Of a stretch of 24,000 bases of DNA, positions 7,047 through 13,487 are shown piece after piece (within the stretch, counting starts at the first letter, position 1; each line of letters starts with the position of its first letter). The stretch is from contig NZ_JAJLQZ010000013.1 in assembly GCF_020991375.1 (NCBI RefSeq), positions 22,608-46,607 of the forward strand. Reading direction: 5' to 3'. This DNA comes from Glycomyces amatae (GTDB lineage: Bacteria; Actinomycetota; Actinomycetes; Mycobacteriales; Micromonosporaceae). The position numbers and the translations under genes are program-made. The notes beneath the pieces were generated by a model. It searched no databases. It had not been told where the DNA came from and worked only from the letters and a program-made list of their open reading frames with translations.

Positions 7047-7913
7047 ATGGCAGTGACGTTGAACCGGCCGGAAGCCGATGAACTGAGCGGCATCGCAGCG
7101 GTGCTGCGCGAGTGGCAGTACGACGCGGCGCCGATGCAGCTGCACCCGGGGGACGTGGGCTGGTTCTACCGCTTCGGGGCAGAGGCGGCGGCCGCCGCGG
7201 TCCGCACCTGGAGCCGCGACGGCCGCATACTCGCGATCGGGCTGCTCGACGGCCCCGAACTCCTGCGGCTGACGATCGCCCCCGACGCCTACCGGGACGA
7301 CGAGCTCGCGCGGCGGCTGGTCGCCGACGTGACCGATCCCGGGCGCGGCGTCCTCCCCGCGGGCAAGGCGAACATCGAGGCGCCCAAGGGCGTGCTCCTG
7401 CAAGACCTCCTGCCCGAGTCGGGCTGGAGCGTCGACGAGCCGTGGACTCCGCTGCGCCGCGACCTCGCCGAGCCGGTGGAGGACCCCGGCGTGCGGATCG
7501 AGGCGGCCGGACCGGAGCAGGTGCGCGAACGGGCCGCCGTGCAGCGGGCCGCGTTCGACGGTTCGACGTTCACCGACGAACGATGGCACGCGATGGCCTC
7601 CGGACCGCTGTACGCCGACGCCCGCTGCCTGCTCGCCTACGACGACCAGGGCGAGGCGGTGGCGACGGTGACGGTCTGGTCGGCCGGTCCCGGCCGACCC
7701 GGACTGATCGAGCCGATGGGCGTGCACCGCGACCACCGCGGCCGCGGCTACGGCAGGGCGATCACCGTCGCCGCGGCGGCCGCGCTCCGGGAGATGGGCT
7801 CCTCGAGCGCGATCGTGTGCACCCCGAGCGACAACGCCGGCGGCGTCGCCACCTACGAGTCGGCCGGCTTCCAGCCGCTCCCCGAAGTTCGCGACCTGCA
7901 CCGGGACGCCTAA
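7047..7913 (+). CDS. GNAT family N-acetyltransferase (about 290 aa, two-lobed)
   Basis: C-terminal acetyl-CoA motif ...IEPMGVHRDHRGRGYGRAITVAAAAALREMG...YESAGFQP. ATG 7047 has GAGGTG at 7030-7035; the alternative GTG 7035 overlaps that SD. Confidence 0.8.
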   Translation: MAVTLNRPEADELSGIAAVLREWQYDAAPMQLHPGDVGWFYRFGAEAAAAAVRTWSRDGRILAIGLLDGPELLRLTIAPDAYRDDELARRLVADVTDPGRGVLPAGKANIEAPKGVLLQDLLPESGWSVDEPWTPLRRDLAEPVEDPGVRIEAAGPEQVRERAAVQRAAFDGSTFTDERWHAMASGPLYADARCLLAYDDQGEAVATVTVWSAGPGRPGLIEPMGVHRDHRGRGYGRAITVAAAAALREMGSSSAIVCTPSDNAGGVATYESAGFQPLPEVRDLHRDA

Positions 7914-8000
7914 CGGCACGCCGTTCCGGCAGGGCGCCCCATTTGCATCCTCAATGTACCTTGAGCATCGTTCCCGCCAATCGATGTGAACGGAGGCCGA

Positions 8001-8402
8001 ATGTTCGGAGAGGAAGTAATCGCCCAGCAGCTCGCCGACGCCCGCGCGGCGCTCAGCAGTGCGGTCAACACCCCTGGCGCCCACCGGATCGACCCGATCA
8101 CCGTCGACGGAGCCGATGGTCTCCTCCAGCTGATGTTGAGCGCCGAGGGCCGCGTGGAGACCATCGAGTACGACCCCCGTGTCATGAACTTCGGCTCCGA
8201 GAACCTCTTCGCCGAGATCAAGCGGATGGTCAACACCGCGCTCGACCAGCGAGCCGAAGCCCTCGGCACCGATGAGCCCACGCCGGACCTGAACGCCATC
8301 AACGAATCGGTCGCCGAGATCCAGGACCGCTCCCTGCGACAGTTCCAGGCGATGGGGGCCTCCATCAGCGAGACCATGGCGCGCCTGCAAGGAGGACGCT
8401 GA
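8001..8402 (+). CDS. YbaB/EbfC-fold protein associated with a type VII secretion-style effector locus
   Basis: ...ITVDGADGLLQLMLSAEGRVETIEYDPRVMNFGSENLFAEIKRMVNTALDQ matches the YbaB core pattern. GGAGG lies at 7992-7996 before ATG 8001 (alternative GTG 7986). Confidence 0.7.
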   Translation: MFGEEVIAQQLADARAALSSAVNTPGAHRIDPITVDGADGLLQLMLSAEGRVETIEYDPRVMNFGSENLFAEIKRMVNTALDQRAEALGTDEPTPDLNAINESVAEIQDRSLRQFQAMGASISETMARLQGGR

Positions 8403-8403
8403 C

Positions 8404-8730
8404 ATGGCCGATCTGGACCTCGACCTCGAGTCCTTTCGCCGTGCCGCCGATGAGTTCGACGCCGCCAAGGAAGAGGTGCAGGCGCTCCTCGACCAGTTCA
8501 CCGGCACTCTGGCGCAGTTCGCCGACGCCTTCGGCGGTGACGAGATCGGCATGCTCGTCGGCATGGCGCACGACGCCTGCACCGAAGTCCTGAACGAGTG
8601 CTTCACGACCAACATCGAGGAGATCGCCGACTACGCCGAGGCCATCCGCGACATGGCGGACGGCCACGAAGCCGCCGACAACGAGAACGCGCAGCTCTTC
8701 AATCAGCTTCTGACCGAACTCGGCGGTTGA
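8404..8730 (+). CDS. Small helical EspC/WXG100-like type VII secretion helper or target protein
   Basis: 108-aa acidic helical protein (...FRRAADEFDAAKEEVQALLDQFTGTLAQFADAFGGDEIGMLVG...). AAGGAGGA at 8389-8396. ATG 8404 lies 1 nt after the YbaB-like stop. Confidence 0.65.
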   Translation: MADLDLDLESFRRAADEFDAAKEEVQALLDQFTGTLAQFADAFGGDEIGMLVGMAHDACTEVLNECFTTNIEEIADYAEAIRDMADGHEAADNENAQLFNQLLTELGG

Positions 8731-8763
8731 CCCGCCGCGCCCCGTCACCAGGAGGTGCGCCCC

Positions 8764-9258
8764 ATGGGGATGCAGATACCCGGCGAACTCGCAGGTCTGC
8801 TGAGCATGCTCGGCTACGACTGGCCCGAATCCGACGAGGAGTCGATCTTCAACCTCGCCGGCGAGTGGACCGGGATGGCCTCTCAGATCGGCGACAAGGT
8901 CGAACGGCTCAACAGCGCCGCGGCCACGCTGCTGGAGAACAACACCGGCGCCGACATCGAGGCGTTCAGGGAGGAGTACGAGGATGCGGAGTCGGCCGCC
9001 CGCAACCTCGCAGGGGCCGCCGACCCGGCGGGCATCATCAACATCGGGTTGACGATCGCCGCGGGGATCGTCCTCGCACTCAAAGTCCAGGTGATCGTCC
9101 AGCTCATGATGCTGGCGTTCCAGATCGCCCAGGCGATCGCCACGGCAGCGGTCACCTTCGGAGCGTCCCTCGTCCAAATCCCGATCTTCAAGATGATCAC
9201 CGGCATGATCATCGATCAGCTGATCGGCATGGCCCTGGACATGGTGCTCAATGGCTAG
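8764..9258 (+). CDS. WXG100-like N-terminal domain plus hydrophobic helical region: the carrier part of an actinobacterial polymorphic toxin, ending without a toxin domain
   Basis: Motif ...LGYDWPESDEESIFNLAGEWTGMA... (compare CpnT-type IWPNGD...AW), followed by the hydrophobic stretch GIINIGLTIAAGIVLALKVQVIVQLMMLAFQIAQAIATAAVTF.... GGAGG at 8751-8755 favours ATG 8764 over GTG 8755. TAG at 9256-9258. Confidence 0.75.
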   Translation: MGMQIPGELAGLLSMLGYDWPESDEESIFNLAGEWTGMASQIGDKVERLNSAAATLLENNTGADIEAFREEYEDAESAARNLAGAADPAGIINIGLTIAAGIVLALKVQVIVQLMMLAFQIAQAIATAAVTFGASLVQIPIFKMITGMIIDQLIGMALDMVLNG

Positions 9259-9682
9259 CAAAAGGCGACGGAACAACCCCGAGCTCCCCGAGGGCGGGGC
9301 CGAACTCATCAAGAAGCCCGTCCGCGGCCTGTTCAAGAACGGCAAGGGCGGCCTCAAGAAAGGCGGCGACGGCGCCGACGCAAGTGCTCCGCGCACCGGT
9401 GTCAAAGGTCTGCTCAAGGACGCTGGCCTTCCCACCTCCGGTCGGATACGATACGTTCCGCCCAAGGGGGTCACGCCCACCACCGGACTTCCGAAGGGCC
9501 CGAACGGCGGGTACTTCGACCGTCATGGGAACGAGTGGGTCAAGGGCCCTTCGCGCACCAAGGGCGAGCCGTACGAATGGGATGTGCAGCTCAGCTCGAA
9601 GGGCCGGAACCAGATCGGCTGGACGACCCGGGACGGTTCGCATGCGAACGTGTCTCTGGGCGGCCACATAACCCATAAATGA
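9251..9682 (+). CDS. Polymorphic-toxin C-terminal module: Gly/Lys-rich linker plus a small toxin domain, possibly nuclease-like (exact family not assigned)
   Basis: ATG 9251 overlaps the carrier stop (AATGGCTAG). The linker MASKRRRNNPELPEGG...KNGKGGLKKGGDG is followed by ...GRIRYVPPKG...GGYFDRHGNEWVKGPSRTKGEPYEWDVQLS...GSHANVSLGGHITHK, which resembles C-terminal toxin cassettes. Followed by an ATGA-coupled small ORF. Confidence 0.7.
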   Translation: MASKRRRNNPELPEGGAELIKKPVRGLFKNGKGGLKKGGDGADASAPRTGVKGLLKDAGLPTSGRIRYVPPKGVTPTTGLPKGPNGGYFDRHGNEWVKGPSRTKGEPYEWDVQLSSKGRNQIGWTTRDGSHANVSLGGHITHK

Positions 9683-9978
9683 GGATGCTCAAGGTGGAAT
9701 TCTACGAAAAGGTCAAGGTCGGGCAGAACGCGTCGTTCGCCGAGTACGCCGGACGAGTCGGCGTCGTCGGCGGCATCAGCGACGGCGCCGACGGAGTGAC
9801 CTATTACGCGGTCAAGTTCGAGGACGACGACGTGGTGATGTTCCCCGGGGACCAGCTCGAGTCGCTCGGCGACAAGGCGTCCCCCGACGAGATGTTCCCG
9901 GGCGGGAGCGTCAAGGTGACCGTGGACGAGAAAGGCCACGCCGAGATCGTCGAGGACAACCCCCCTCAGCGGCCGTAG
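9679..9978 (+). CDS. Putative cognate immunity protein (small, acidic)
   Basis: ATGA start/stop overlap with the toxin ORF (9679-9682). 99 aa, MRMLKVEFYEKVKVGQNASFAEYAGRVGVVGGISDG...YYAVKFEDDDVVMFPGDQLESLG. Confidence 0.65.
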   Translation: MRMLKVEFYEKVKVGQNASFAEYAGRVGVVGGISDGADGVTYYAVKFEDDDVVMFPGDQLESLGDKASPDEMFPGGSVKVTVDEKGHAEIVEDNPPQRP

Positions 9979-10002
9979 CGAACGCAACGTGCTCTCCAGA
10001 GC

Positions 10003-10034
10003 CGCCGCTCGGGTCGAAAAGGGCGGGAGCGGCG
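10003..10034. terminator. GC-rich hairpin between convergent genes (candidate bidirectional terminator)
   Basis: CGCCGCTC (10003-10010) pairs with GAGCGGCG (10027-10034) around a 16-nt loop containing AAAA. No clear U-tract. Confidence 0.3.
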
Positions 10035-10038
10035 CGGG

Positions 10039-10758
10039 TCAGGCGGCCCGCCAGTAGGCGAGGGTGTGCGCGCGCTGCTTGGGGACGCCGAGTTCCTTGC
10101 GGGCGAAGGCGGTCAGGGCCCTCGTGGACTTCGCCTCGGCGGCGATCCAGAGGTAGATCCGCTCCGGTTCCTTCGTGAAGTGCGGCAGCTCCTCCCGGAC
10201 CTGCTCCAGCAGTGCGGCGCCGTCCTCGCCCCTGGCGATCTTGCGCAGGTCGTGGCGGATCGGGTCGACGCGGAACGGGAGCTCGTCGTCGTCCGCGGTC
10301 TCGAACCAGATCGTCGCGGGGGTCTCGGGGAACGCGTCGAGCAGGGAGTTGATCGCCGGCAGCGAGGCCGCATCGCCCACGACCAGGAGCCGTTCGGGGC
10401 TCGGGTCCGGCTCGGTGAAGCCGGTGCCCTGCACCGACGCCTCGATCACGTCGCCGGGCTTCGCGGTGCGGGACCAGTCGCTGGCGCAGCCGTCGTGCAG
10501 GGCGAACTCGATGGCGAAGGCGCCGTTCTCGACGTCCGGGTCGACCAGGGTGTAACCGCGCTGATGGGGCCTGCCGTCGTTGTCGAACCACAGGCGCACC
10601 CACATCGTGGGGTGCACGCCGAGTGCCGCGAGCAGGCCGCCGTCGGTGAAGGTGAGGCGCCGGTAGTGCTCGGTGACCTGCTCGGCACCGGTCACGGTGA
10701 ATTTGAAGTCCTTGGCGCGGAACAGCTTCAGTACCGCGCCTTCCCAGCCGTGTCCCAT
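10039..10758 (-). CDS. Siderophore-interacting protein (SIP/ViuB-type ferric-siderophore reductase)
   Basis: FAD-binding beta-barrel motif ...HQRGYTLVDPD..., then an NAD(P)H-binding half ...LLVVGDAASLPAINSLL... and ...YLWIAAEAKSTRALTAFARKELGVPKQRAHTLAYW. GGGAGG lies 6 nt before the ATG. Confidence 0.85.
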   Translation of the reverse strand: MGHGWEGAVLKLFRAKDFKFTVTGAEQVTEHYRRLTFTDGGLLAALGVHPTMWVRLWFDNDGRPHQRGYTLVDPDVENGAFAIEFALHDGCASDWSRTAKPGDVIEASVQGTGFTEPDPSPERLLVVGDAASLPAINSLLDAFPETPATIWFETADDDELPFRVDPIRHDLRKIARGEDGAALLEQVREELPHFTKEPERIYLWIAAEAKSTRALTAFARKELGVPKQRAHTLAYWRAA

Positions 10759-10829: not shown

Positions 10830-13487
10830 ATGAGCTTCATGTGCTACCGGGACGCCTGGGGGATCCCCCACCTGCGGGCGCCCGACGCGAACGCGCTGGC
10901 GTTCGCGCAGGGATGGAACGCCGCCGCCGACCGGGCCTGGCAGATCGAGACCGCGCGCCGCCGCGCGACCGGCACCGCCTCGGCCCTCCTCGGCGAGTAC
11001 TGGATCGGCTGGGACCGCCTGGTCCGGCAGGCCCGCGTGGTCGACACCGCGGTCGCGGCCTTCGACGCGCTGGACTCCGCCACGGCCGACTGGGTCCGCG
11101 CCTTCGTCGCGGGAGTCAACGACGGACTGGCGAAAGGGGCCGCCTCCGGCGCCGGAGACGAGGCCCAACGCCTCTGCGAGCCCTGGGAGCCCTGGACGCC
11201 GCTCGCCTTCTGGCACGCCGACCACCTGCTCTTCGGGGCCGGGTTCCCCGCGAAGCTGTGGCGCGAGCGGGTCCGGGACGCCCTGGGGGAGGACGCCGTC
11301 GACCGGTTCGCCCTGGACGGGCCCGAGCCGGTCGGCTCCAACGGCTGGCTCCTCGACGGGTCCATGACCGCCTCCGGCTCGCCCCTCCTCGCGGGCGACC
11401 CGCACCGCTTCATCCAGCTCCCCGGCTCCTACCAGCAGATCCGCCTCGCCTGCGACGAGTTCGACGTCGTCGGCCTGGCCATGCCCGGCATCCCCGGCAT
11501 CGCCCACTTCGGGCACGCGGGCGGCGTCGCCTGGGGCATCACCAACGCCATGGCCGACACCCAGGACCTCTACCGGGAGCGCCTGCGCCGCAACGCGAAC
11601 GGCTCCGTCGAGGCGTTCGGCCCCGATGGCTGGGAACCGGTCTTCACGCGGACCGAGCGCTTCCAGGTCGCCGACGGCCCCGATCAGACCGTCGAGGTCG
11701 TCGAGACCGCCCGCGGCCCGGTCGTCGCCGGAGGGCCCGAAGAAACCGAGGGGCCGCAAAGTTTCGGGACGGCGCTGAGCCTGCGCGGCCCCGCCCAGGC
11801 GCTCCCCGACCTCGGGTTCGCCGCGCTGCCCCGGCTGCTGCACGCCTCCATCGTCACCGATGTCGATGCCGCGCTTCAGGACTGGGTCCTCCCGGTCAAC
11901 GTGGTCATGGCCGCCGACACCCGGGGCGGGCTCCTCCACCGCACCGCCGGGCGCGTGCCCGAGCGGGACGCGGCGAACCTCCGCAGCCCCGTGCCCGCCT
12001 GGGAGCCCCGCCACGCCTGGGACGGCTGGAAGCGCATGCCCCGCAAGCAGGTCGACCGGATCGCCGTCATGGCCAACGACCGCGCCCTCGCCGCGCCCCT
12101 CGGCGTCGAGTTCTGCCCGCCGCACCGCGCCGACCGCATCCGCTCGTTGCTGGAGGCCCGGTCGGACTGGACCGCCGCCGACATGGCCGCGATCCACGCC
12201 GACACCCGGCTCCCCACGGCCGGCGCCGTGCTCGACCTGCTCCCCGGCCTCGACCTTGACGGCGACGCCGCCTCGCTGCGCAAGACCCTGCTCGCCTGGG
12301 ACCGCCGGATGGACGCCGACAGCACCGAGGCCGCCGCCTTCGCCGCCGTCCGGGCCGCGTTCGTGCGCCGCCTCGCCGCGCTGCCGCGGTTCCGGGCGCT
12401 CGACGGGCCTTCGGGCCTGCCGCCGGTGTTCGCGCCCTGGCTCGCCCTGCGGCCCCGCATCGGGTTCGCCCTGGAGCACGTGCTCGACGCGGCCGCTCCA
12501 GGGGAGGCGACCGGCCCGGGCGCCGCGCAGCGCCTCATCGACCCGGCCGACCGCGACGCCGCCCTGCGCGGCGCCCTCGAGGAGGTCGCCGCCGACCCTC
12601 CCGCCGCCTGGGGCGAGGTCCACCGGCTCGTGCCCTGGGAGGACCTGCCGCCCGGCGCCGAGGAGTCGGAGCCCCTGACGGGCATGTCGGGCGACGCGGA
12701 CTGCGTCCTGTCGACCTCCGGCGTCCCCGGCGTCACCGAGGACTTCTCCCGCGGCCCCGCCGCCCGCTGGGTCTGGGACCTCGCCGACCGGCGCCGGAGC
12801 CGCTGGATCGTCCCCTTCGGAGCCTCCGGGACCCTCGGGCCCCACCACCGCGACCAGTTCCCGCTGTGGCGGCGCGGCGAACTCGCCCCCGTCGTCACCG
12901 ACTGGCACCTGCTGCGAGAGGAGCACCGCATGATCGACCGCCCCGCCGTCTTCGAACGGCGCCTGGAGGGCTTCGGCACCGTCGCCGTCGTCCCCGTCCG
13001 CCCCGCCGAGGACCTCGACCTCATCTACGGCTGGGTCACCCAGGAGCGGGCCCGGTTCTGGGGCATGACCGGCCACTCCCGCGACCACGTGCTGGAGATC
13101 TACGAGTACCTCGACGCGCTGAGCACCCACCACGCGTTCCTGCTGCTGCGCGACAGGGCGCCGATCGCCCTGTTCCAGACCTACGAGCCCGACGCCGACC
13201 CGGTGGGGGAGTGCTACGAGGTCGAGCCCGGCGACATCGGCGCCCACCTCCTGGTCGCCGCCCCGCAGGGCCGCGCCCAGGTCGGGTTCACGGGCAGGCT
13301 CATGCAGGTTCTCACCGCGTACCTCTTCGACGACCCGAAGCACCGGCGGATCGTCGTCGAGCCCGACGCCCGCAACGACCAGGCCCGGGCCCGCATCCGC
13401 CGCCTCGGGTTCACGCTCGGCCCCGAGATCCGGCTGCCGGACAAGACCGCGCAGCTCGCGTTCCTGCGCCGCGAGGACGCCGCCTAG
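10830..13487 (+). CDS. Fusion protein: penicillin amidase/acylase-family Ntn hydrolase (N-terminal, about 700 aa) + IucB/DesC/MbtK-type siderophore N-acyltransferase (C-terminal, about 180 aa)
   Basis: N-terminal: ...YRDAWGIPHLRAPD...AFAQGWNAAADRAWQIE... and the nucleophile motif ...GSNGWLLDGSMTASGSPLLAGDPH. No signal peptide. C-terminal: ...DLDLIYGWVTQERARFWGM...FQTYEP...PGDIGAHLLVA...LFDDPKHRRIVVEPDARNDQARARIRRLGFTLGPEIRLPDKTAQLAFLRRE, the Acetyltransf_8 pattern. Confidence 0.85.
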   Translation: MSFMCYRDAWGIPHLRAPDANALAFAQGWNAAADRAWQIETARRRATGTASALLGEYWIGWDRLVRQARVVDTAVAAFDALDSATADWVRAFVAGVNDGLAKGAASGAGDEAQRLCEPWEPWTPLAFWHADHLLFGAGFPAKLWRERVRDALGEDAVDRFALDGPEPVGSNGWLLDGSMTASGSPLLAGDPHRFIQLPGSYQQIRLACDEFDVVGLAMPGIPGIAHFGHAGGVAWGITNAMADTQDLYRERLRRNANGSVEAFGPDGWEPVFTRTERFQVADGPDQTVEVVETARGPVVAGGPEETEGPQSFGTALSLRGPAQALPDLGFAALPRLLHASIVTDVDAALQDWVLPVNVVMAADTRGGLLHRTAGRVPERDAANLRSPVPAWEPRHAWDGWKRMPRKQVDRIAVMANDRALAAPLGVEFCPPHRADRIRSLLEARSDWTAADMAAIHADTRLPTAGAVLDLLPGLDLDGDAASLRKTLLAWDRRMDADSTEAAAFAAVRAAFVRRLAALPRFRALDGPSGLPPVFAPWLALRPRIGFALEHVLDAAAPGEATGPGAAQRLIDPADRDAALRGALEEVAADPPAAWGEVHRLVPWEDLPPGAEESEPLTGMSGDADCVLSTSGVPGVTEDFSRGPAARWVWDLADRRRSRWIVPFGASGTLGPHHRDQFPLWRRGELAPVVTDWHLLREEHRMIDRPAVFERRLEGFGTVAVVPVRPAEDLDLIYGWVTQERARFWGMTGHSRDHVLEIYEYLDALSTHHAFLLLRDRAPIALFQTYEPDADPVGECYEVEPGDIGAHLLVAAPQGRAQVGFTGRLMQVLTAYLFDDPKHRRIVVEPDARNDQARARIRRLGFTLGPEIRLPDKTAQLAFLRREDAA

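Follow-up and report, generated by a model that had tools for sequence, protein, structure and literature searches.

The 24,000-nucleotide stretch of DNA analysed here (the window), from the soil actinobacterium Glycomyces sp. A-F 0318, carries a five-gene cassette (Table 1) that we read, with a probability of roughly 0.6 that covers the mechanism proposed below, as an antibacterial polymorphic toxin-immunity cassette in split form, one of a dispersed type tied to actinobacterial type VII secretion (T7SS; ESX-4-like, T7SSa). It would represent a split version of known actinobacterial T7SS toxin loci (EatA/TapA1/TapA2-like), and the split is the new part: the cassette is unusual because export "handle" and toxin are apparently two translationally coupled proteins, not one fusion.

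Table 1. Features of the cassette (window positions)
Position	Strand	Feature	Basis
7986..8402	+	YbaB/EbfC-fold (EspL-like) protein; opens the constant module	ORF; orthologue profile
8404..8730	+	108-aa acidic WXG100-like helical-hairpin helper (Tap/Lap-like)	ORF; profile match
8764..9258	+	Free-standing 164-aa WXG100_2 / CpnT-N-terminal-like trafficking domain ("carrier")	PF25547
9250..9258	+	Overlapping stop/start junction AATGGCTAG	sequence
9251..9412	+	Toxin leader, residues 1-54: basic tail MASKRRRNNPELPEGG, amphipathic segment AELIKKPVRGLFKNGKGGLKK, Gly-rich linker	
9413..9682	+	Ntox17 domain (residues 55-142) and stop codon	PF15524
9679..9978	+	Acidic candidate cognate immunity protein, pI 4.2-4.4	synteny; ORF

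Layout and recurrence of the cassette

The five plus-strand ORFs that a preliminary description had named as YbaB-like protein, helper, carrier, toxin and acidic downstream gene are all present, the toxin ORF (9251-9682) encoding a basic protein of 143 aa; profiles and synteny bear out this order and these roles, and every motif quoted there occurs in the sequence. The spacings of +1, +33, -8 and -4 nt add up for the start codons chosen there, as an ORF and sequence check confirmed, but the YbaB-like and immunity genes probably start elsewhere (at ATG 8001 and possibly GTG 9694, respectively). The lower GC3 relative to the flanks is real, though modest (0.79-0.92 vs. 0.89-0.97); overall GC is 0.64-0.66 in the cassette and 0.70-0.76 in the flanks.

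The same succession of genes is found again in Actinoplanes, Micromonospora, Actinomadura, further Glycomyces loci and 80 contigs from metagenomes. Two Actinoplanes species, one metagenome contig and at least three further cassettes of the same genome, these last with other payloads, have the identical five-gene order. Such an arrangement is far beyond chance. Its constant parts are four: the YbaB-fold protein, the WXG100-like helper, the free-standing 164-aa WXG100_2 domain and, from the toxin gene, its first ~40 codons. In the Actinoplanes pair dN/dS was 0.08-0.42 across all five genes, values that indicate purifying selection on each of them. Computed pI values are 10.4 for the toxin and 4.0-4.4 for carrier, helper and YbaB-like protein.

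The YbaB-fold protein and the helper

For the first gene the most likely start is ATG 8001, giving 133 aa with pI 4.4, since GGAGG lies 4 nt upstream (7992-7996) and homologues are 133 aa long. Its single sequence stayed below the curated Pfam and NCBIfam cutoffs (PF02575 weakly, E = 0.039), and the YbaB-fold assignment was secured by the family profile: built from 10 orthologues, it matched PDB YbaB 1J8B over residues 1-86 (E = 8e-8), along with 1PUG (1.8e-7) and M. tuberculosis Rv3716c (5e-4, residues 1-86). The gene stands upstream of the carrier in 49 of the 55 metagenome loci with enough sequence, at dN/dS 0.35-0.51.

The helper (computed pI 4.05) is preceded at 8 nt by AGGAGG (8390-8395) and lies directly 5' of the carrier in 54 of the 63 loci with room for it. 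As a single sequence it matched WXG100 PF06013 (E = 6e-4) and TIGR03930 (E = 2.5e-4), both under the curated cutoffs, while a profile of 10 orthologues matched the T. curvata Esx chain 4LWS_A (2.4e-4) and, weakly, EsxB chains. Thus of the label EspC/WXG100-like previously given to it the second half stands; EspC (PF10824) gave no specific signal. The turn motif is FGG in place of WxG, and WGG in the Actinomadura orthologue. A Pfam/NCBIfam profile search of the cassette products gave no LXG (PF04740), DUF3130 or DUF3958 signal.

The carrier

That the third gene encodes a WXG100-like carrier was well founded: it matches PF25547 at E = 8.6e-13 and 48.9 bits (cutoff 27). AGGAGG (8750-8755) ends 8 nt 5' of ATG 8764, and GTG 8755 is an alternative start. 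The N-terminal LGYDWPESDE...AGEW pointed out earlier is present; Pfam WXG100_2 has it as its conserved N-terminal signature, and G[YF]xWP[EQ][SAG]DE served as a working search pattern. LGYDWPESDE is followed by WTG (residues 35-37), F-x3-Y-x3-E (68-76) and a hydrophobic helical region (86-164). Carrier homologues (439, carrying the UniRef name 'Outer membrane channel protein CpnT-like N-terminal domain') were all 162-166 aa long among the best 120, of which 119 have F-x3-[WY]-x3-[ED] and 94 WxG. The YxxxE of the window carrier is atypical for its family, where the aromatic residue is W; that WxxxE stands in for the canonical YxxxD/E in nearly all carriers counts against our main reading. Carrier dN/dS was 0.14-0.28.

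The hydrophobic region raises an alternative, a carrier that forms pores or sits integrally in the membrane, as has been proposed for the N-terminal channel of CpnT or the EsxE/EsxF pores; it would export the toxin from the producer, or import it by insertion into the target membrane, with a T7SS role that is at most indirect. Hydropathy exceeds 1.6 in 19-residue windows starting at residues 86-144 and the Kyte-Doolittle 19-residue mean reaches 2.25; this 75-residue stretch could mean a membrane protein instead of a soluble secreted bundle, and we count it against our main reading. The homologues are, moreover, named after the N-terminal domain of the CpnT outer-membrane channel; the recognised payloads, almost all nucleic-acid enzymes, must cross the cytoplasmic membrane of the target; and the Arg/Lys-rich toxin leaders might suit entry driven by membrane potential. 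EsxE and EsxF, from the cpnT operon, are reported to form membrane channels (PMC7810871). Nonetheless, the same hydrophobic region belongs to the domain in fused T7SS-type toxins, it contains conserved Lys and Gln, the helper is always co-encoded, and the hydrophobic faces of the EatA N-terminal helices are buried by Tap partners (bioRxiv 10.64898/2026.08.24.746431). We consider this alternative unlikely, if deserving of attention; it is also compatible with T7SS export, and may describe the step that follows it.

A conserved split between carrier and toxin

The carrier ends in Asn-Gly-stop, and the toxin ATG (9251-9253) lies inside the rare AAT codon for that Asn, so that the two ORFs overlap by 8 nt in a +1 frame relation; only a weak Shine-Dalgarno sequence precedes the toxin start. 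Of 71 non-redundant related loci, 52 have this -8 junction (AATGGnTAR / NTG-Gnn-TAR), and NTG-Gnn-TAR is also present in 13 of 17 loci from genomes or assemblies; the remaining offsets seen among related loci are -11, -4, -1, +6 (same frame) and +8. Codon choice at the junction is striking: all 12 loci compared spell the Asn AAT, a codon that supplies 8 of the 85 Asn codons (9%) elsewhere in the carriers and 1 of the 60 in the flanking genes of the window. In Actinoplanes an uncommon Leu codon, CTT, instead furnishes a TTG start. All 77 evaluable metagenome carriers end at the same place.

More distant carrier homologues (about 30-40% identity) are single fused polypeptides of 300-1700 aa with a WXG100_2-type domain at residues 1-160. 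When split and fused states were mapped on the tree, six changes sufficed, against about 43 with shuffled labels. The split arrangement was found conserved across about a hundred related loci, and its codon and tree patterns indicate that it is genuine and selected. Carrier and toxin had rightly been taken as separate genes before, but that their separation is an unusual, conserved feature, given the fused state of distant homologues, had been missed.

These fused homologues, together with the highly conserved junction and the weak Shine-Dalgarno sequence, would also suit an alternative in which AAT GGC TAG is recoded, by stop-codon bypass or a programmed +1 frameshift, to give one fused WXG100_2-Ntox17 protein, the two-ORF appearance being the recoding signal; in L091 and L099-L101 the ORFs are in frame with a stop and 6 nt between them, where readthrough would fuse them. 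One programmed frameshift shared by all loci was rejected on the differing offsets and frames: offsets of -11, -4, -1, +6 and +8 beside -8 mean that no single recoding event could fuse all the pairs, which would need +1 for -8/-11, another non-zero frame for -4/-1/+8 and none for +6. Furthermore, every locus retains a start codon (ATG, GTG or TTG), using otherwise rare codons (AAT, or CTT in Actinoplanes) to do so, the P-site codon varies (GGC, GGT, GGG) and only GGG re-pairs well after a +1 slip, and the toxin ORF always begins with Met and a basic tail that is absent at that place in the fused proteins. We therefore hold recoding to be quite improbable.

Still harder to credit is that the locus is a decaying remnant, a fused toxin gene broken by a frameshift whose downstream ORF is an unexpressed or orphan module kept with its immunity gene. 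Orphan toxin and immunity modules are common in polymorphic toxin loci (L012 and L019 are examples here), and the toxin ORF has the lowest GC3 of the cassette (0.785). Against decay, the split position is identical across genera, the split state is phylogenetically stable, selection maintains the start codon, catalytic-signature residues are intact, and dN/dS is low in both toxin domain (0.08) and carrier (0.15).

Leader, payload and candidate immunity gene

The constant start of the toxin gene encodes a leader whose first ~37 residues are 81-86% identical among proteins with unrelated C-terminal domains (P0075-P0077), and leaders of the same type (basic tail and amphipathic helix) open 69 downstream ORFs. 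The leader is basic (K+R 14/60, pI 10.5), aligns with the K-rich helix that lies C-terminal to the domain in fused homologues, and has AF2 pLDDT <50 at toxin residues 24-43.

The toxin domain, earlier held to be unplaceable in a named family, is Ntox17 (PF15524; 110.6 bits where the cutoff is 25, E = 4.4e-32), in agreement with the NCBI name; the motifs RYVPP...EWDVQLS...HANVS...ITH picked out at the time are conserved Ntox17 columns. Ntox17 is listed among predicted metal-independent RNases with an 'ExD, H' signature (Zhang et al. 2012, PMC3482391), to which the intact conserved E109-W110-D111 and H131/H142 correspond. AF2 pLDDT exceeds 90 over the domain, for which neither sequence search nor Foldseek found a PDB relative; the RNase label thus goes back to the 2012 prediction.

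Behind the same leader and carrier, the 72 ORFs include EndoU (11), Ntox21 (7), Ntox17 (4), GH-E (2), deaminases (4) and CdiA_C (1), most identified payloads being predicted to target nucleic acids. Each is followed by its own downstream gene(s), some by SUKH-type immunity genes. Orphan immunity and orphan toxin fragments also occur, as in L012 and L019.

In each Ntox17 cassette encountered (window, L002, L004, L005) the acidic last gene stands in synteny downstream; it has eight close homologues and dN/dS 0.22, and matched no Pfam or NCBIfam family. Imm31 is the immunity partner reported for Ntox17, which is absent from the actinobacterial listing of the same source (PMC3482391); as a candidate identity for this gene, Imm31 was rejected in the profile search, a point against our main reading. 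Translation from ATG 9679 gives 99 aa and from GTG 9694 it gives 94 aa; GAGGA (9681-9685) 8 nt upstream, the NCBI call of 94 aa and the starts of homologues at other loci support GTG. The earlier account of an ATGA-coupled acidic ORF is therefore sound as to acidity and co-conservation and doubtful as to its start: from GTG 9694 the coupling becomes a gap of +11. An orphan copy of the immunity gene (68% identity) lies behind a different toxin in L019.

A small toxin beside a small acidic candidate neutraliser, away from any secretion locus, might also be an intracellular toxin-antitoxin or abortive-infection module acting in the producer rather than a secreted weapon; Ntox24 and RES, for instance, occur in toxin-antitoxin systems too (Zhang et al. 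2012, PMC3482391). We regard this as very improbable, because the three conserved upstream genes are a WXG100/YbaB set tied to ESX secretion, Ntox17 is otherwise found C-terminal in secreted toxins of the RHS, filamentous-haemagglutinin and MafB types, and payload swapping with SUKH immunity genes is a hallmark of polymorphic toxins.

Proposed mechanism and link to T7SS

We infer T7SS dependence, non-covalent docking, RNase activity and immunity, in a mechanism of the following steps. Ribosomes terminating on the carrier would re-initiate on the toxin ORF, so that toxin would be made only with carrier and at most in equal amount. The basic amphipathic leader may then dock non-covalently on an acidic helical bundle of carrier and helper, taking the position that, in fused homologues, is filled by a helix of the same chain; alignment of the leader with the K-rich helix and the complementary charges (basic toxin, acidic partners) suggest this docking. 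An AF2 single-sequence run on the carrier-toxin concatenation, the one structural test of their contact, gave it no support (pLDDT 44.5). The YbaB-fold protein may serve as a chaperone. A T7SS recognising the WxG and [W/Y]xxx[E/D] features would export the complex; Ntox17 would act in a neighbouring cell, probably as an RNase, and the acidic downstream protein would neutralise the toxin in the producer.

Scans of the window and of about 100 fetched loci found no T7SS core gene, which counts against this reading. N-terminal WXG-type helical bundles are marks of T7SS polymorphic toxins (PMC3482391); M. abscessus ESX-4 exports EatA with TapA1/TapA2, and similar loci are reported across Actinomycetota (PMC13444075); YbaB/EspL-like genes stand first in operons that belong to the ESX-4 SigM regulon (PMC13491425); and an ESX-4-like core is present in Micromonospora lupini (PMC4182475), whose genus carries split cassettes.

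Relation to known systems

The analogy drawn initially with LXG toxins and their small helical partners is reasonable, and a characterised actinobacterial counterpart exists in EatA-TapA1-TapA2-EatI of M. abscessus (ESX-4/T7SSa; PMC13444075; bioRxiv 10.64898/2026.08.24.746431), likewise from Actinomycetota. We found no sequence-level link between EatA and the window carrier, which are likened here by published descriptions. In both kinds of locus, small WXG100-like partner gene(s) precede the coding region for an elongated helical trafficking domain (about 160-180 residues), which in EatA binds the partners through its hydrophobic faces; both also have a variable payload, a downstream immunity gene and a site away from the secretion core. 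However, EatA and eat-like toxins (typically 400-1000 aa) are one polypeptide, whereas the window locus has two genes with an overlapping stop/start; it has one helper and a YbaB-fold protein in place of two Tap proteins, Ntox17 with a predicted cytoplasmic target in place of a cell-wall arabinanase, and an immunity candidate that, unlike that of the EatA locus, has no lipoprotein signal.

CpnT (Rv3903c) of M. tuberculosis, whose N-terminal domain gives the carrier homologues their name, similarly has WXG100 genes upstream (the pair EsxE/EsxF), an N-terminal part that mediates its secretion and a downstream immunity gene (ift). It is nonetheless one large polypeptide that ends in an NAD+ glycohydrolase aimed at host cells, in contrast to the two ORFs, small RNase-type payload and YbaB-fold partner found here, and it depends on several ESX systems and the mycobacterial outer membrane. 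Glycomyces would not be expected to possess such a membrane.

LXG toxins with Lap1/Lap2 (or LapA3/LapA4) of the Bacillota T7SSb (PMC9600955, PMC10801868) share the principle of a composite export signal, made of a helical N-terminal trafficking domain and co-encoded WXG100-like hairpins, with polymorphic C-terminal toxins and adjacent immunity genes. They differ in phylum, in secretion subtype and in the covalent joining of LXG domain and toxin, and no YbaB-fold partner like that of the window locus is described for them. The T6SS offers a parallel in concept: there, a given toxin domain can be part of a secreted structural or trafficking protein (specialised effectors) or a separate protein loaded non-covalently (cargo). 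The parallel is one of analogy only, the machinery being unrelated and homology absent. The fused WXG-domain toxins of actinobacteria (Zhang et al. 2012, PMC3482391) belong to the same N-terminal family and are the more distant homologues of the carrier (30-39% identity); they also have a Gly/Lys-rich linker before small C-terminal toxins and, as in the source genome of the window, several paralogues per genome; unlike in the window locus, that linker joins domain and toxin covalently.

Separation of carrier and toxin genes

The third product of the five-gene cassette was confirmed as a WXG100-like carrier, scoring 48.9 bits against PF25547 (WXG100_2; cutoff 27), with residues 20-145 (counted from GTG 8755) aligned to profile positions 18-144 of 150. 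In databases the family takes its name from CpnT, a toxin of M. tuberculosis, and specifically from the N-terminal domain. The window carrier has the motifs LGYDWPESDE, WTG (residues 35-37) and F-x3-Y-x3-E (residues 68-76, ending in Y72-E-D-A-E76), and its second half (residues 86-164) is very hydrophobic. Of the bipartite WxG and YxxxD/E features tied to export in 'eat-like' loci, WxG was found in 94 of 120 carriers. YxxxE was rejected as a family feature (Y in one of the 120, W elsewhere; WxxxE rather than YxxxE in 118) and is a peculiarity of the window copy. The best PDB match to the carrier profile was S. aureus EsxA, at E ~0.3. Scanning the genome collection with the carrier as single query gave 7 loci; carrier homologues totaled 439 and metagenome matches 189, and ~100 split loci were examined. 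Plasmid and phage collections yielded one weak match for the carrier, on a Streptomyces megaplasmid, and none for the toxin.

To our knowledge, the characterised T7SS toxins (e.g., LXG toxins, EsaD, TslA, CpnT and EatA) all have the helical targeting domain and the toxin in one chain. The window carrier ORF stops at residue 164, and the covalent toxin continuation present in CpnT is absent. The 120 closest carrier homologues were all 162-166 aa long, and among 80 metagenome loci the carriers stopped at the same point in all 77 that could be evaluated. Distant relatives (30-39% identity) are single proteins of either 300-450 or 1300-1700 aa, where the domain at residues 1-160 is followed by a K-rich helix and then the toxin; such fused forms made up 71 of the 129 full-length representatives. 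In the searchable literature, which covers the EatA paper of 2026 (PMC13444075) without its supplementary tables, we found no described split or 'piggyback' T7SS toxin.

At 52 of 71 non-redundant loci the toxin start is embedded in the last carrier codons with an 8-nt overlap, in the form NTG-Gnn-TAR (AATGGCTAG in the window). For the Asn that provides the ATG, 12 of 12 loci use AAT, a rare codon that serves for only 8 of 85 carrier Asn residues elsewhere and for 1 of 60 in the genes flanking the cassette in the window; in Actinoplanes an uncommon CTT Leu codon creates a TTG start instead. Other loci had offsets of -11, -4 (ATGA/GTGA), -1 (TGATG), +6 (same frame) and +8, so that the junctions together span all three relative frames, and every one keeps a start codon for the toxin ORF. 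Recoding, by which carrier and toxin would be made as one fusion protein, is quite improbable on this evidence, since the offsets would need different frames and the start is always preserved by rare codons; a single programmed ribosomal frameshift shared by all loci is excluded on the same grounds. The junctions point to separate translation of carrier and toxin, most simply by termination and re-initiation. In four loci (L091, L099, L100 and L101) the two ORFs are in the same frame, with the stop and 6 nt preceding the ATG, and stop-codon readthrough there would recreate the fusion.

Pseudogene decay of the locus is the least credible of the alternatives. Between two Actinoplanes species, dN/dS ranged from 0.08 for the toxin domain to 0.42 for the YbaB-like gene (table), and on a neighbour-joining tree of the 129 representatives the split/fused state changed 6 times, vs. 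~43 with shuffled labels, which together argue that the split arrangement is not decay.

Location and properties of the features discussed (dN/dS between two Actinoplanes species; L numbers denote fetched related loci)
Feature	Location	Strand	Length (aa)	pI	dN/dS
YbaB-like gene	window 7986-8402	+		4.4	0.42
Helper	window 8404-8730	+	108	4.05	0.30
Carrier	window 8764-9258	+	164	~4.05	0.15
Carrier/toxin junction	window 9250-9258	+
Toxin	window 9251-9682	+	143	10.4
Toxin leader (residues 1-54)	window 9251-9412	+		10.5	0.22
Toxin domain (Ntox17, residues 55-142)		+			0.08
Immunity candidate	window 9679-9978	+			0.22
Siderophore-interacting FAD-binding protein	window 10039-10758	-
Penicillin-amidase/Acetyltransf_8 fusion	window 10830-13487	+	885
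Deaminase fragment, Actinomadura sp. 3N508	L012:7250-7612		121
Additional ESX-substrate-like genes	L015:10961-11192
Additional ESX-substrate-like genes	L020:9859-15858
Toxin ORF with Arg-Gly repeat leader	L017:10488-11267
Toxin ORF with Arg-Gly repeat leader	L026:1887-2708
Toxin ORF with Arg-Gly repeat leader	L032:445-1266
Orphan immunity homologue	L019:1848-2135
Same-frame junction	L091: about 4493-4504

Constant leader and variable payloads

At least three more cassettes of the Glycomyces genome share this junction but carry other payloads. Recognisable payloads among 72 downstream ORFs were EndoU (11), Ntox21 (7), Ntox17 (4), deaminases (4), GH-E nuclease (2) and CdiA_C (1), and some payload genes were followed by SUKH-type immunity genes. 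Every toxin ORF begins with a basic tail, accompanied by a short amphipathic helix. In Glycomyces-like sequences, toxins with unrelated domains were still 81-86% identical over their first ~37 residues, which places the boundary between constant and variable parts inside the toxin gene. A joint alignment placed the leader helix over the columns of the helix by which the chain continues in fused homologues.

Several loci showed variations on this plan. In three (L017, L026 and L032) the short basic tail of the toxin ORF gives way to a leader of about 30-60 residues with Arg-Gly (RGG/GRG) repeats. In the Actinomadura locus L012 the main payload of the split cassette is itself a deaminase, and a deaminase fragment (Toxin-deaminase, E = 8.5e-9) downstream of the cassette's SUKH-1 immunity gene has the appearance of an orphan toxin module that was displaced. 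Within about 10 kb of the split cassettes of L015 and L020 we found more ESX-substrate-like genes (T7SS_ESX_EspC matches, a weak DUF2563 match and two adjacent YbaB_DNA_bd genes), which suggests that effector loci occur in clusters.

The toxin and its immunity candidate

The preliminary description had placed the toxin in no named family. This proved wrong: residues 55-142 match Ntox17 (PF15524) over profile positions 7-98 of 98, with 110.6 bits (cutoff 25) and E = 4.4e-32, and NCBI names an identical protein 'polymorphic toxin type 17 domain-containing protein'. Zhang et al. 2012 (PMC3482391, Table 2) list Ntox17 with the 'Predicted metal-independent RNase toxins', giving proteobacteria and firmicutes as its taxa and Imm31 as its partner. 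The window toxin has the conserved ExD motif and His described there; in an alignment of 74 sequences W110 and D111 are invariant, and E109, H131 and H142, all intact here, are conserved at ≥90%. An AF2 model of the toxin consists of short beta strands and two helices, with pLDDT >90 for the domain. Foldseek of the Ntox17 model against the PDB gave no match below E = 1.6, and phmmer of the toxin against PDB sequences returned nothing.

The acidic immunity candidate lies downstream of every Ntox17 cassette found and has only 8 close homologues. Neither it nor three orthologues matched any Imm family at E ≤ 10, so that Imm31 is not the partner here, though pairing with Imm31 does not define the toxin domain; searches for a Pfam or NCBIfam family gave nothing beyond chance-level matches to small beta-barrel domains. 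The cassette also widens the range of Ntox17 to Actinomycetota and adds a new family of putative immunity proteins. In L019 an orphan homologue (68% identity) of the immunity candidate ends a cassette in which only the leader of the toxin (P0077) is shared with the window toxin, and no Ntox17 domain occurs on that contig; such an orphan copy would fit what polymorphic toxin immunity genes do elsewhere.

Two stand-alone Bacillota Ntox17 proteins, P0045 (Bacillus sp. Sa1BUA2) and P0063 (Paenalkalicoccus suaedae), are homologues of the window toxin. P0045 begins MLRLDLQFFASSQKK, which resembles the N-terminal leader that Prp protease cleaves off ribosomal protein L27 and some capsid and scaffold proteins of staphylococcal phages. 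By this analogy P0045 may be a toxin packaged in phage particles.

Upstream partners of the carrier

The first product had been called a YbaB-fold protein. As a single sequence it scored 14.5 bits against PF02575 (cutoff 25.5), and its orthologues carry precomputed weak or faint PF02575 marks; the fold was borne out by a 10-orthologue profile, of which positions 1-86 matched the solved YbaB proteins 1J8B (8e-8) and 1PUG (1.8e-7) and M. tuberculosis Rv3716c (5e-4). A family-specific C-terminal helix follows the YbaB part. Of 55 loci with enough sequence, 49 have this gene upstream of the carrier gene, which ties YbaB/EspL-like proteins to effector modules and gives a hint of the role of EspL-type proteins. 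For a putative EspL-like chaperone role of the product, or for nucleoid-associated DNA binding, the evidence is contextual: this co-occurrence, and the position of YbaB/EspL-like genes at the head of M. abscessus operons in the ESX-4 SigM regulon.

The helper, described as EspC/WXG100-like, appears WXG100-like by its family profile (E = 2.4e-4 to Thermomonospora curvata Esx chain 4LWS_A; E ~0.4 to EsxB chains), although the single sequence falls below the curated cutoffs (PF06013, 20.5 vs. 27.3 bits; TIGR03930, 21.2 vs. 44.85). At its hairpin turn, 10 of 11 orthologues have FGG, and the Actinomadura one has WGG. In 54 of the 63 loci that extend far enough, the helper gene directly precedes the carrier gene, and the cassette thereby has the small helical partner of Tap/Lap type, immediately upstream of the trafficking domain, that characterises an 'eat-like' locus.

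Proposed mechanism and relation to known systems

The cassette belongs by sequence to the Ntox17, WXG100_2 and YbaB families and would work like the EatA/Tap, CpnT/EsxEF and LXG/Lap systems, but the covalent linkage of trafficking domain to toxin that is common to all described relatives is absent. Its likeness to LXG/Lap (T7SSb) would be one of working, and it is not a member of that system: the LXG domain (PF04740) and the DUF3130/DUF3958 partners were unmatched in the five products at E ≤ 1, and the only related match in the Pfam/NCBIfam search at that threshold was that of the helper to TIGR04197 (E = 0.089).

Four lines of evidence stand behind the putative link to T7SS. WXG-type bundles at the N-terminus have an established association with toxins of T7SS (PMC3482391); the ESX-4 toxin EatA of M. 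abscessus has TapA1/TapA2 as partners, and similar loci are reported across Actinomycetota (PMC13444075; bioRxiv 10.64898/2026.08.24.746431); YbaB/EspL-like genes head operons of the M. abscessus ESX-4 SigM regulon (PMC13491425); and Micromonospora lupini has an ESX-4-like core (PMC4182475). The window itself contained no T7SS core gene (EccB/C/D, MycP), and no fetched locus contained an EccC-like ORF (>1000 aa with several Walker A motifs).

We propose that coupled translation would produce toxin only alongside carrier, that the basic leader would dock on the acidic bundle of carrier and helper in place of the lost covalent continuation, and that an ESX-4-like T7SS would export the complex; Ntox17 would then attack RNA in a neighbouring cell while the downstream protein protects the producer. 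An intracellular toxin-antitoxin role, in which toxin and downstream protein would act within the producing cell, we judged very improbable and rejected. AF2 applied to a concatenation of carrier and toxin (single sequence) gave an uninformative model (pLDDT 44.5, pTM 0.28).

In its widest form, to which we give roughly one chance in five, the reading is that one large actinobacterial clade of T7SS toxins has severed the trafficking domain from the toxin, and that this domain serves as an adaptor which binds non-covalently and can be reused. Re-initiation at the conserved overlapping stop/start would set the carrier:toxin ratio, and the short basic amphipathic leader would be the universal docking tag for a wide range of nucleases, RNases and deaminases. 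Once outside, the carrier would insert its hydrophobic hairpin of 75 residues into the target membrane, and the Arg/Lys-rich leader would drive toxin entry, which would offer a mechanism by which T7SS nucleic-acid toxins cross a Gram-positive membrane. That the carrier is a membrane-inserting or pore protein is made attractive by its hydrophobic region together with the cytoplasmic targets, and is compatible with export; we consider it doubtful.

A large, stably inherited split clade would imply that a toxin can be exported by docking on a carrier protein, and the class would correspond, in T7SS, to the 'cargo effector' of T6SS. If true, this would be the first 'cargo-type' (not fused) class of T7SS effector. 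It would also give a minimal transferable T7SS targeting tag of about 40 residues, a natural system for genetically separating trafficking from toxicity, and a route to the question of toxin release and target-cell entry. Should the docking idea be wrong, the locus would still be a well-defined member of the polymorphic T7SS toxin-immunity class; that class is already known, and what is new would be the split form itself.

Gene calls, composition and flanking genes

The five + strand ORFs were recovered as first described (table), and their spacings of +1, +33 (helper to carrier), -8 and -4 nt are correct for the start codons then chosen. The carrier start at ATG 8764 is backed by AGGAGG 8 nt upstream. 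Two other starts may need revision. The YbaB-like gene most likely starts at ATG 8001, with 7986 too far upstream, given GGAGG 4 nt before that ATG and the 133-aa length of the orthologues. The immunity gene possibly starts at GTG 9694 rather than ATG 9679, given GAGGA 8 nt upstream, the NCBI call of 94 aa and the starts of orthologues in other loci; the reported ATGA overlap of 4 nt exists with the original start, but the coupling would be gone with the later one. Identical toxin, carrier and immunity proteins are recorded from Glycomyces sp. A-F 0318.

GC3 is lower in the cassette than in its flanks, as had been noted (0.79-0.92 vs. 0.89-0.97), and the cassette is modestly AT-richer overall (GC 0.64-0.66 vs. 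0.70-0.76). The promoter and terminator scan gave nothing exceeding shuffle expectation, and a repeat search of 7700-10300 found neither direct nor inverted repeats at the flanks that would suggest the edge of a mobile element. Beyond the cassette, a gene fusing a penicillin-amidase (Ntn-hydrolase) domain to an Acetyltransf_8 GNAT domain adjoins the gene for a siderophore-interacting FAD-binding protein; the two probably act as a pair in tailoring or using a siderophore, with no connection to the toxin cassette.
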